From Saccostrea echinata (taxonomy: Eukaryota): 64,000 nucleotides of DNA. The stretch is from contig NW_026889758.1 of the NCBI RefSeq assembly GCF_033153115.1, positions 49,972,001 to 50,036,000 of the forward strand. Reading direction: 5' to 3'. Positions 55,726 to 60,093 of the stretch are shown one piece after another. The stretch's first letter is position 1. Each line of letters begins with the position of its first letter. The notes beneath the pieces are model-generated. The model was given only the letters and a program-made list of their open reading frames with translations, had not been told where the DNA came from and ran no database searches. The translations under genes and the position numbers were made by a program.

Positions 55726-56951
55726 TTATCCAACCAGTGGACACCAACAACAAGTTCCATCTTCTGTCATATGACATGGTAAATGACAATGGCTCTCGTC
55801 CTTCCCAAAGCATGGGAATGCTCTTTTACCTGTAAAAACATAAAATGTATCTTAGTCGGAAACAAAATTTAGATAACTGCATTCAAGAATTTAGATGTGT
55901 AAATCGCATATAGTATCCCTGTTCAAATTGAAATCCTTTAAAGTAATATGGTCCAAAACTTTGCTTCTACGTGTTCTATTGGATAGAAGAAAATTGTTGT
56001 TGTTTTTTCTCAGTTAAAATTTTGGTGATCCTGAATTTACAAAAATTAAAACATCGGGTCTCACTGGCAGAGAAAAAATGACGTTAACTGAAAGGCAGTT
56101 TGGCGACTTTAGAATTTCTAGAAATCAATTCCCTGAGCACCAACAAAAAGTCGTCCAGCAATTTCACACGTGGTTACTGTAGACCCTTTCGTAATATTGA
56201 AACTTTTCTTTAAAAATTATTTTGTGATATACATTGTGTGCAGCTTGATTAAAATTTATAAGGCTTTCACATAAAGTTTATGCTGACTAGTATAACACAA
56301 TCGTATTTGATACAAAGTTCCACGATAATATCTTACACAAAAAGGTACATATTCCTGCGCGACACACCATATTTTATGGATAATAATTATTTTTGTGTTG
56401 CTTTGTAATTAGTAAAAAAAACTTTTGAATATAATTTCATTAAGTACGTAAGCTTCAGATATTTTTTTATTTAAAAATCTAGCTTAATTTAAATAACTTT
56501 TGTACCTGGAAATATGCGTGGGCAACAGCATCTGTTATCGTCTACAGAAAAATGACATCGGTAACCAAGGTAAACAGATTTGCATGCTTCTTCGGTTTCT
56601 GCATAATGACAGTCTTCACGAGTCCTGTATAAAAAGCATGTCTTCAAACATGTCCAATTTCGTAGCTTATTTTGGATGGTTAATCCCACAAAAACAAGTA
56701 CATTAATATGAATATTACTGGTTATTTGTATAATGGTTTAAGCAAATGAATTCTTTATTCGCATTATTAAAAGTATTTCATATGCATGTCAATTTCTAAA
56801 ACACATATGTCATCTTTCAAAAAAAATCTTATATGAAGATAATTTTAATGAAATGAAAATTTAAATTAATTAATATAAATACATCCTACCAACGAGCTGA
56901 ATAAGCCAAAACAACAAAGGTAAAAAGGATCACAAATTGCACAAGCTTCAT
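55726..56951 (-). CDS. Secreted precursor A of two cysteine-rich peptides (94 aa), family unknown
   Basis: Exons 56951-56890, 56624-56506, 55829-55726 (phases 2 and 1, GT-AG): MKLVQFVILFTFVVLAYSA-RWTR-EDCHYAETEEACKSVYLGYRCHFSVDDNRCCCPRIFP-GKR-AFPCFGKDESHCHLPCHMTEDGTCCWCPLVG*. Confidence 0.88.
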
Positions 56952-58209
56952 TTTTCTGAATACAGTCGACGTGTTGAGATTACAGGCAATCTTGGGAACT
57001 TGGCCTAATTCTAGACAAATCTCTTTGCTAAAGGAGTGGTAATATTTTGATGCTCTGTTATTAAAAGCACATAAATAAGAATTTAGAATTGATTAAGCTA
57101 TCAATAACATAATGCAAGGATCATATCAACAGATAGAGGGCATACGGAGAGAATGACAAAAAAAAAACTTTACTGTTTCTCTCAATATGGTATTTTGTAT
57201 TTTAATTACGTATGATATCTTATATAGTACGCCATACTCTTTTAAAGGTACTACTTATAATGGGTATTAAATAAAAAAAATAACAGTTTCAAAAGTAAAT
57301 TTCAGTGAAATGTATAAGAATAGAATAGAATTATTGCATCATATTTGTTTTCATTTTTAAGAAAATTTTAAAAAACAGAAAAGGAAAATACCTTGAGTTC
57401 AGATGAAATAAAATATTTCAAATGAAAGAGACATAACTTGCTAGCAATAGAAGAACATATACAACATTTGGTTATTTCTCTTCATCTGTTTTATCAGGAA
57501 GTTATTTATATACTTATTTATACTTTATAAAATGATCCGTCACTTAAATAGGGTAAGATACATATATTATGTAAACTTTGCATTCATAAATTTATAAAAA
57601 GTGGTTCTTTGTGCAATATTATGATTGAAAGTACATCTATCATTTCACAGACATGGCTGTTGCTGAAACTTCAACTTTTCTTTTGATGGTTTTGATACCT
57701 CCTATCTTCTTGGAAAGCTTCTATTTTTAAAGACTTTCTTGGAAGTCAATATGGTTGTCTTATTATGAATAGAGAGTACTACATTGATGAACACGTTTGC
57801 ATTCACGTTTGCAGTTTCTTGGTTTGATTTAATTGAGATTTTAGTATGTTTGGCATATTTTGATCTTTTTCAATGCATGATTTTGAGCTGATTTTTACCA
57901 TCTCTATTTTATTAAGTTATATCTAATCAGTATGGAAATTGCCGATGTAAAGGGAAAGTTAAAACATGGACAAATAATGGTCGAATAATTTTGAGTACCA
58001 TTTTTACAACACTTTAATCTATTTTAAATTACTTAATACTCCTTGTGTATTTATAACCAAAACATTTTAAAAGAATGCAGACAAATAGACACGAAAAAAT
58101 ATACCAATAATTGGAAATAACAATGGTATTACATCTCAACACACATAAGCATCATGTCAAAAGAGAAATGAGTTAAAAGAGGGATAACAAATTGGTTCTA
58201 TGACAATTC

Positions 58210-58215
58210 TTTATT
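58210..58215 (-). terminator. Polyadenylation signal of precursor B
   Basis: AATAAA on the minus strand 13 nt after the stop codon. Confidence 0.55.
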
Positions 58216-58228
58216 TGTTGCGTTGAGT

Positions 58229-60093
58229 TTAGGAGGTACACCAGCAACAGTACTCTCCCGGCATGTCACATCTAGTTCGGCAGTCCCTCACCATCTTACA
58301 GTTAGGGGGACAAACCCAGTCCCACACCATAGCGCAGTGTCCTGCTTCTCTCTTACCTGTTAAGGGGAAAAGAACTTTATCTCATACCGCATTTATGTTA
58401 GAAATCATCTTATTTCTCTCAAATTAGATTTGAATTATTCTACTTTCTCTCAATAAAACTTAGCATTCAGCTGTTACTGGTGTTATAGAGTTATTTAATA
58501 TATCTAATTATTATACATTTCCTACATTCTAACACTTGGCAACAGAAAAGACAACGAATAGTATGATTCATTTATGCTAAAATGAAATTCGTATTAAAAT
58601 CGATTTTGACCTTTTTTTTCAAAATATTTTTCAACAAGCTTTGCTTTCTCTGGTACATTACGTATATACAACCATACAGATATTTCTTTTTATTTTTTTA
58701 TGAAATAAAATAAATATAACGTAATGCGTTTCTGTGTTCACGTGATCATTTGGTAATAGTATTGAAGCATACGAGATCCCAGTATCCCTACTTATTCAGT
58801 GTCTGATACATTTAACAGACTTCATCATCATGTATGCTAAAATTTGAGATGCGATTTTTAGTAGCGTCACAAACGCTTCAAATGTTTTCCATTTAATTGT
58901 AAACGGATTTTCCATGAAATAATCTTAATATAATGTGCATAAACAATACATTTTAAAAAAAATACTTGAATATAAATTTGCCTCAGCTTTCTATTATCAA
59001 CTTTAAGTTGAACAAATATACATGTTTATTGTTTTCAGATTTGCATTGTTCTTTTAATGTTTTATTGGCTGATTGGTAATCATCTACATCTACATAAATA
59101 TCATTCCTTTGATACCTGTTTACACTTTCTTTTTAAATTTCTATTCCTCAAAAAGTACTATACAATGTATAATTGATACCTACATTCTGTTCCCTTATAT
59201 TATAACATACCCGGATAAATTGGTGGGCAACAGCACATGTCATCCTTCATGTGACAAACGCTACCAAAGATGCCAAGTATGCACTGGGTCTCTGTGTCTA
59301 CTGGCCTACACCATTCTCTCTTCCTAAAAAAGAAACATAATTCTTCTGACTTAGCAACACTGAAAAAAACATATCAAGACAATATTTTAAAAATGCAGCA
59401 AAGCAGCATTTTCACAAGCGTCAAAATTGGACCGCAAGTACCATTTTCTGCAAAATGCATTCAAGCGTTCAAGAATAACATTTGTTTGTGCAATTTGTAC
59501 CAAAAAGAAAAGAAGAAAAGTTCCATGGCAATGCAGATGACCCTTATCTCACGTATCTAGTAGGACTGTCTCCTTGCGGTCCTTTAAAAAATGAAAATGA
59601 ACAGGGTTTTTTTTTTTTTATTAAAAGCGAAAAATTACAGATCTTATATCTATGTGTGTTAGAACAGAAAACTCAAAAATAAACAAAATGGAACTATTGG
59701 GATATATATACTTTATTTCATATACAAATATACGTGGAGGCTTTTTTTCTGACAAGTTTGTTACATCCCAACTGAATTTCAAAAACAATGATAATCATAA
59801 TAATCATAGAGAAAAATTATATTAATATAACCGTATTTCATTTGGCCTAAAATTATATCAACAATGAAACAGCATGTTTCAAAATAGCTACGGTGTCAAT
59901 CAAGGCTAGTTAACAGACAGAACACATAGAACAATAACCCGACGACACTTGACATTATTAAAAGACCTTAAAGATTGCAATAGTTATTGTGTAAAAATAC
60001 ATACGCAATGATCTAATGTTACCTTCTTAGCGCCTCTGAAAAGGCAAAACAGCATATTAAAAACAATACAAAGGTTTGCAAATGAAGCTTCAT
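58229..60093 (-). CDS. Secreted precursor B of two cysteine-rich peptides (103 aa), paralog of A
   Basis: Exons 60093-60023, 59323-59211, 58356-58229 (same phases as A): MKLHLQTFVLFLICCFAFSEA-LRRKR-EWCRPVDTETQCILGIFGSVCHMKDDMCCCPPIYP-GKR-EAGHCAMVWDWVCPPNCKMVRDCRTRCDMPGEYCCWCTS*. Confidence 0.9.

Follow-up and report, generated by a model that had tools for sequence, protein, structure and literature searches.

Two tandem genes of the oyster Saccostrea echinata, each encoding a precursor with two cysteine-rich peptides

Two neighbouring genes of the oyster Saccostrea echinata, termed genes A and B here, each encode a precursor that carries two cysteine-rich peptides; the genes are real, spliced, conserved within oysters and, as far as searched, undescribed. 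They lie in a stretch of 64,000 nucleotides (NCBI RefSeq assembly GCF_033153115.1, contig NW_026889758.1, positions 49,972,001 to 50,036,000 of the forward strand), which is called the window and to which all positions refer. In both genes the precursor order is signal peptide, RxxR site, peptide 1 (A1 or B1), GKR and peptide 2 (A2 or B2). Convertase-processed precursors that hold two or more cysteine-rich peptides are, as a general kind, already known in oysters, with precedents in the eclosion-hormone-like and GSWN precursors (PMC8398477). The peptides of genes A and B may be conserved hormone-like or local signals that act on the oyster's own receptor or ion channel, an explanation that is preferred tentatively and at somewhat less than an even chance.

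A coordinate-based script translation places the two three-exon genes head to tail on the minus strand, 1.3 kb apart. All four introns are bounded by GT..AG, and in both genes the first is in phase 2 and the second in phase 1. This arrangement, proposed in a preliminary description made from the sequence, was reproduced by the translation and by the joining of all four introns in assembled contigs. The features are as follows (X numbers denote sequencing runs).

Gene B, exons 60093-60023, 59323-59211 and 58356-58229, minus strand: product of 103 amino acids.
60023..60093, minus strand: gene B exon 1, coding part, with the hydrophobic signal peptide and the first half of RRKR; phase-2 donor; from the translation, with joint 59322/60022 in X2 and X6.
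59211..59323, minus strand: gene B exon 2, with the end of RRKR, peptide B1 (59316-59212; 35 amino acids, 6 Cys) and the first base of the GKR glycine; phase-1 donor; identical to the database protein P0002.
58229..58356, minus strand: gene B exon 3, coding part, with GKR, peptide B2 (58348-58232; 39 amino acids, 8 Cys, CC-W-C-T-S end) and the stop; joint 58353/59208.
58210..58215, minus strand: AATAAA 3' of the gene B stop; the ends of the contigs listed fall at 58191, 58196 and 58215.
Gene A, exons 56951-56890, 56624-56506 and 55829-55726, minus strand: product of 94 amino acids.
56890..56951, minus strand: gene A exon 1, coding part, with the signal peptide and the first half of RWTR; upstream, one spliced contig (X5) reaches 57164.
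56506..56624, minus strand: gene A exon 2, with the end of RWTR, peptide A1 (56617-56507; 37 amino acids, 6 Cys) and the first base of the GKR glycine; from the translation and joints.
55726..55829, minus strand: gene A exon 3, coding part, with GKR, peptide A2 (55821-55729; 31 amino acids, 6 Cys, CC-W-C, terminal Gly) and the stop; joint 55826/56503.

Cleavage-type sites are found at residues 23-26 (RRKR) of the gene B product, at residues 20-23 (RWTR) of the gene A product and at GKR in both, and basic pairs are confined to these RxxR and GKR sites. RWTR is a minimal furin site, with no basic P2 residue. Both N-termini are hydrophobic, with small-residue sites near positions 16-21, as judged from hydropathy and motifs rather than by a dedicated signal predictor. 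Intron 1 splits the basic RxxR site and intron 2 lies inside the glycine just before KR. The hydrophobic N-terminus, the basic sites flanking the peptides and the Gly before KR of a convertase-processed, amidated secreted precursor are thus all present. In A2, a Gly directly before the stop forms a second possible amidation site, unmentioned in the preliminary description.

Peptide 1 ends in CCC-P-x-I-[FY]-P in both genes, with the cysteine arrays C-x8-C-x8-C-x6-CCC in B1 and C-x8-C-x8-C-x8-CCC in A1. Peptide 2 carries CC-W-C near its end, the arrays being C-x7-C-x3-C-x5-C-x3-C-x6-CC-x-C in B2, which has an additional N-terminal Cys pair, and C-x7-C-x3-C-x7-CC-x-C in A2; the mature regions hold 12 Cys in gene A and 14 in gene B. 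The initial claim that all four peptides are anionic and 30-39 residues long holds in the window, where the net charge, (K+R)-(D+E), is -3 for B1, -3 for A1, -1 for B2 and -3 for A2 and the lengths are 31-39 residues; however, B2 is weakly acidic, its counterpart in ortholog P0001 has net charge 0, and once the gene B orthologs are included, peptide 1 ranges from -3 to -4 and peptide 2 from 0 to -3.

Transcript evidence was taken from assembled contigs compared in two sets, four runs from two studies and then three runs; the runs are guessed to be RNA, none being on record as RNA, and their tissue is unstated. In contigs of the first set, all four introns are skipped exactly as predicted, at joints with CT..AC ends. 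Run X2 contains genes A and B as separate contigs, each fully spliced. The second gene B joint, 58353/59208, is present in all four runs of the first set and the first in X2 and X6 (second set), while both gene A joints occur in X2, X4 and X6 (second set), with 55826/56503 also in X2 and X5 of the first set. In run X6, which is labelled as a different organism, 9 of 121 bases differ in exon 2 of gene A and 14 of 110 in exon 2 of gene B. Some low-depth contigs cover the introns, and no contig among those listed bridges the two genes. Junction reads had been named at the outset as a check, with a lack of spliced transcripts counting against the genes; all four introns are joined in these RNA-type contigs. 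Relative to the window, the contigs also show three changes in the mature peptides, namely V76A (58314; X1-X3) and I39T (59279; X1, X2, X5) in gene B and S73I (55793; X5) in gene A, and both gene B positions also vary among orthologs.

The gene B translation is identical to P0002 (RefSeq XP_061174763.1), an 'uncharacterized protein' of S. echinata. Word-index searches and cluster look-ups found relatives at 67-90% identity in S. cucullata (two), Magallana/Crassostrea gigas and angulata, Ostrea edulis and C. virginica. Outside oysters none was found by word-index, cluster and HMMER searches, which are weak for short peptides, so that distant relatives are possible; one word-index search, insensitive here, missed the ortholog P0004. 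This protein (XP_011442045, XP_052701449), the 106-residue gene B ortholog of the Pacific and Portuguese oysters, bears the NCBI name 'tyrosine-protein kinase receptor Tie-1(-like)'; both its length and the absence of Pfam domains contradict that name. Gene A is apparently unannotated: its protein was absent from every protein collection searched, including 1.84 billion representatives scanned by HMMER with an A1-containing profile. This two-sequence peptide-1 profile, short enough that distant relatives could escape it, returned two hits, P0001 and P0006, the latter a 614-residue repetitive insect protein that was rejected because the Cys array is missing.

The Pfam cut-off was reached by none of the four exon peptides and none of the seven full proteins, and a sequence search of the PDB gave no credible match, WD-repeat and spike rows being rejected as chance. 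No description of the family was found in the open-access literature by accession or by peptide motif, and of the 14 papers listed for the motif none has a title that concerns molluscan peptides. Subscription articles, supplements on bioRxiv and tables of differential expression fall outside this scope, and the M. gigas gene may be listed in them. In the PMC8557429 supplement, all four CCWC and seven CCCP places were inspected and none belongs to this family; in the available part of the PMC6425005 supplement, CCCPP, CCCPR, VWDW and EWCRP gave no matches and 5 of 20 CCWC places were inspected. The family had first been called unrecognised. This stands in so far as neither a description nor a full-length match to a described peptide family was found in the Pfam, PDB-sequence and literature searches; gene B itself is nevertheless on record in RefSeq and UniRef, in entries that are uncharacterized or misnamed.

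The pattern CCC-P-x-I-[FY]-P-G followed by a splice donor has two matches in 923 Mb, genes A and B, and none in the reversed control. A looser genomic pattern gave four matches, two of which (L031 and L032) were rejected, as was the candidate L003; in all three the exon and Cys context is missing. No further copy was found within 100 kb on either side (20 flanking stretches). Because only these two copies were found, the family is not expanded or hypervariable in this genome.

Invariance was counted over five of the seven gene B proteins, leaving out P0003 (a near duplicate) and P0005 (a different N-terminus). The RRKR (4/4) and GKR (3/3) positions are invariant, in keeping with the prohormone-style layout of the preliminary description. 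Among non-Cys positions, 16 of 29 in peptide 1 and 19 of 31 in peptide 2 are invariant, whereas the signal/pro region has 4 of 20, and the Cys spacing is identical in all seven proteins. The preliminary description had pictured fixed cysteines and variable loops, an impression that arose because the two paralogs were compared; across the gene B orthologs it is the signal region that varies, while the loops stay conserved. With these conserved loops and two copies, the picture of a variable toxin-like family was not borne out.

Genes A and B are tandem paralogs. The homology of A1 and B1 extends past the cysteines, as none of 3000 Cys-fixed shuffles scored as well, whereas the likeness of A2 to B2 is not significant (409/3000), and homology there rests on position, intron phase and CC-W-C. 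Comparisons of peptide 1 with peptide 2 gave 23/3000 for A1-A2, 63/3000 for A2-B1, 961/3000 for B1-B2 and 3000/3000 for A1-B2, by which an internal duplication from peptide 1 to peptide 2 is only hinted at.

Secretion of the precursors is likely, as are their cleavage at RxxR and KR into two peptides and the amidation of peptide 1; established pathway knowledge suggests the following route. Signal peptidase would remove the signal peptide, furin or convertase-type enzymes would cleave after RxxR and KR, and a carboxypeptidase would trim KR, after which PAM would amidate at Gly in peptide 1 of both genes and possibly in A2. The yield would be two disulfide-bonded peptides of 3.4-4.5 kDa per precursor. 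The weakest step is the last, in which the target would be the oyster's own receptor or ion channel; the animal's own protein is proposed because the sequence is so strongly constrained. The acidic to neutral charge, the two copies, the introns at processing sites and the oyster precedents for precursors with two Cys-rich peptides would also favour signalling. Taken together, the strong constraint on the loops, the unchanging processing signals, the small number of copies and the acidity may suit a fixed oyster target better than an arms-race effector, a judgement that is itself put at somewhat below even odds.

Among known signalling systems, the CCWamide/agatoxin-like peptide (ALP) genes (PMC8557429; oyster alignment in the PMC8398477 supplement) share a short three-exon precursor, an exon-1 signal, a Cys-rich product and amidation, and an intron-interrupted cleavage site is reported for them (PMC8557429). 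The three exons, exon-1 signal and intron at the cleavage site, which genes A and B also show, are a common layout and hence weak evidence. However, these genes yield a single C-terminal eight-Cys peptide in which CC occupies positions 3-4 and the end is aromatic and amidated, whereas genes A and B encode two Cys-rich peptides with adjacent Cys at the C-terminal end; B2 does have eight Cys, but with CC at 6-7 and no amidation signal.

Structure prediction and a Foldseek search, which had been proposed at the outset, gave a strand-helix-strand-strand model of B1 (E2-5 H9-13 E22-24 E27-30) and no match at E 0.001. Peptide 1 is predicted from this model to be a compact beta-alpha-beta-beta fold; B1 alone, with a seven-row alignment, reached a predicted local distance difference test (pLDDT) score of 78.4 and a predicted template-modelling (pTM) score of 0.44, while the precursor model was poor (pLDDT 58.5, pTM 0.35). 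VIA-align found nothing at Z >= 2 for the precursor model and six rows at Z 2.1-2.9 for peptide 1, none of them a scorpion toxin, the best being an unrelated chain (Z 2.9, root-mean-square deviation 4.0, 34 aligned); neither result makes the fold new. In the ESM Atlas every row scored below 0.9; three of the five A1 rows shown were scorpion short-toxin clusters (0.78-0.80), and one lead cluster (0.77) had PF10468, the carboxypeptidase inhibitor I68, on 12% of its members.

Several points weigh against a signal acting on the oyster itself. The top four of the eight Foldseek rows are scorpion short toxins (template-modelling scores 0.58, 0.54, 0.52 and 0.37; not significant), the best look-alikes of peptide 1 being K+ channel toxins (0.52-0.58, E 4.7-5.8, likewise non-significant), and this fold class is tied to defence, although the predicted likeness amounts to no more than a lead. 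Conservation can be just as strong among inhibitors of conserved enzymes, and that of gene A is seen solely at the nucleotide level, in sequence under one other organism label. The relatives found are all from oysters, a narrower range than for most neuropeptides. The family motifs and the M. gigas accession are absent from the available supplement text of an oyster visceral-ganglion neuropeptide survey (PMC8398477), in which pictures and broken alignments could hide motifs, and this absence counts against a classical neuropeptide. In a more specific form of the signalling explanation, which is conceivable yet unlikely, an orphan receptor or channel would have as its endogenous amidated ligand a defensin/scorpion-toxin-like scaffold with an undescribed Cys framework (C-C-C-CCC, C-C-C-CC-x-C), present twice in each precursor or as a two-chain molecule.

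Much of the same structural evidence would suit a defence role, in which pairs of peptides with a defensin/scorpion-toxin-like build would be released to counter microbes, parasites or predators and would work through a specific target, be it a channel, a lipid or a glycan, and not by cationic membrane lysis. This alternative, which is possible although unlikely, draws on the predicted topology, the scorpion short-toxin rows in Foldseek and the Atlas, and the restricted taxonomic range; however, all structural matches fall below significance (E > 4; Atlas < 0.9), the peptides are acidic and the family shows no expansion. Pore-blocking toxins carry a Lys before the third Cys, which is present in none of the gene B proteins. 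In the cystine-stabilised helix motif of the CS-alpha-beta fold, C-x3-C is bonded to C-x-C; peptide 1 lacks C-x3-C and ends in CCC, while peptide 2 carries both spacings but has no spacer between the last-but-two and last-but-one Cys. The CS-alpha-beta superfamily (invertebrate defensins and scorpion short toxins; PMC5116183) shares the size and predicted topology of peptide 1, whereas genes A and B differ from it in acidity, in having two modules per precursor and in their non-significant structural scores. Corals have acidic SCRiP toxins (PMC2652719, PMC10892658) with a signal, a convertase site and a C-x6-CCC end as in B1, which favours defence; these are single peptides with an eight-Cys framework, unlike the six Cys of peptide 1 and the additional GKR and second peptide. 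Mussel CRP-I and multi-CRP-I (PMC4558851, PMC10138031) are likewise secreted bivalve products with a convertase site and six-Cys modules, some on multi-module precursors, but are cationic, with many paralogs, modules on one exon and the array C(X3-6)C(X1-7)CC(X3-4)C(X3-5)C (C-C-CC-C-C), which genes A and B lack, and they are reported absent from oysters. Their pre-pro region is conserved and their mature region hypervariable, the reverse of the gene B orthologs. The Cys patterns therefore differ from CRP-I, as first described, and no match was found to the defining arrays of CRP-I, CCWamide, SCRiP or I84.

The peptides might instead be small inhibitors of proteases or other enzymes, in which two acidic, exon-encoded Cys modules like those of the bivalve I84 inhibitors are released separately; this is judged unlikely. 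I84 genes (PMC9198434) also have three exons, with 6+6 Cys on exons 2 and 3 (the count of gene A), an isoelectric point of about 5-6 and tandem copies. To the eye, the core of B2 (C-x5-C-x3-C, its second Cys preceded by V-x-D) looks similar to I84 motif 3, and the I68-bearing Atlas cluster points the same way. However, the 12 Cys of I84 form the arrays C-x5-C-x4-C-H-C and C-x7-C-x4-C-T-C, the general ending being C-x4-C-x-C, whereas the arrays here end in CCC or CC-W-C; both I84 introns are in phase 1 and its mature chain is described as some 70 residues long (PMC9198434), whereas here the introns are in phases 2 and 1 and an invariant GKR separates the modules. An inhibitor would have no need for that GKR and amidation Gly, and I84 was set against genes A and B by description rather than by sequence comparison. 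It is improbable that peptides 1 and 2 stay joined after cleavage as one two-chain, disulfide-linked molecule on the logic of insulin and relaxin: the Cys count is even in each peptide, as in both insulin chains, the CCC run and absent helix Cys leave the pairing in peptide 1 undecided, and both modules are equally conserved with only GKR between them, but intrachain pairing of six Cys is possible, the two modules are encoded by separate exons and peptide 1 alone was modelled more confidently than the precursor.

Elsewhere in the window, two tandem multi-exon genes of expansin-like appearance lie on the plus strand at 43500-46420 and about 48900-50530; a cellulose-binding protein and the pollen allergens Phl p 1/2 match them weakly in the PDB (E 0.056-0.24), their exon pieces have no Pfam match, and the first shows GT..AG joints in X2, X4 and X6. 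Also on the plus strand are a retrotransposon-like fragment at 41316-42603 (RVT_1, E 2.2e-10, in two overlapping frames), exon-like open reading frames at 36161-37197 with Thr/Pro/Ser-rich, mucin-like repeats and no Pfam match, and a 234-residue open frame at 15954-16658 with a coiled-coil-like middle, a hydrophobic C-terminal stretch and sub-threshold Pfam matches. An open frame of imperfect tandem repeats of ~25 residues occupies 11423-11890 on the minus strand, and dispersed repeats, with many divergent contigs at high depth, are found at 54350-55650 and 45220-45620.

General principles are untouched by these genes, given the multi-peptide Cys-rich precursors already known in oysters. What is added is a defined, conserved and synthesisable peptide family in farmed animals whose peptide hormones and immune effectors are being catalogued, together with an annotation gap, in which gene A is missing from the protein collections searched and the name of a receptor kinase is wrongly attached to the Pacific oyster gene B ortholog. 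The Cys frameworks may be new small disulfide scaffolds and, if the peptides are ligands, they would offer a direct route to deorphanising an oyster receptor.

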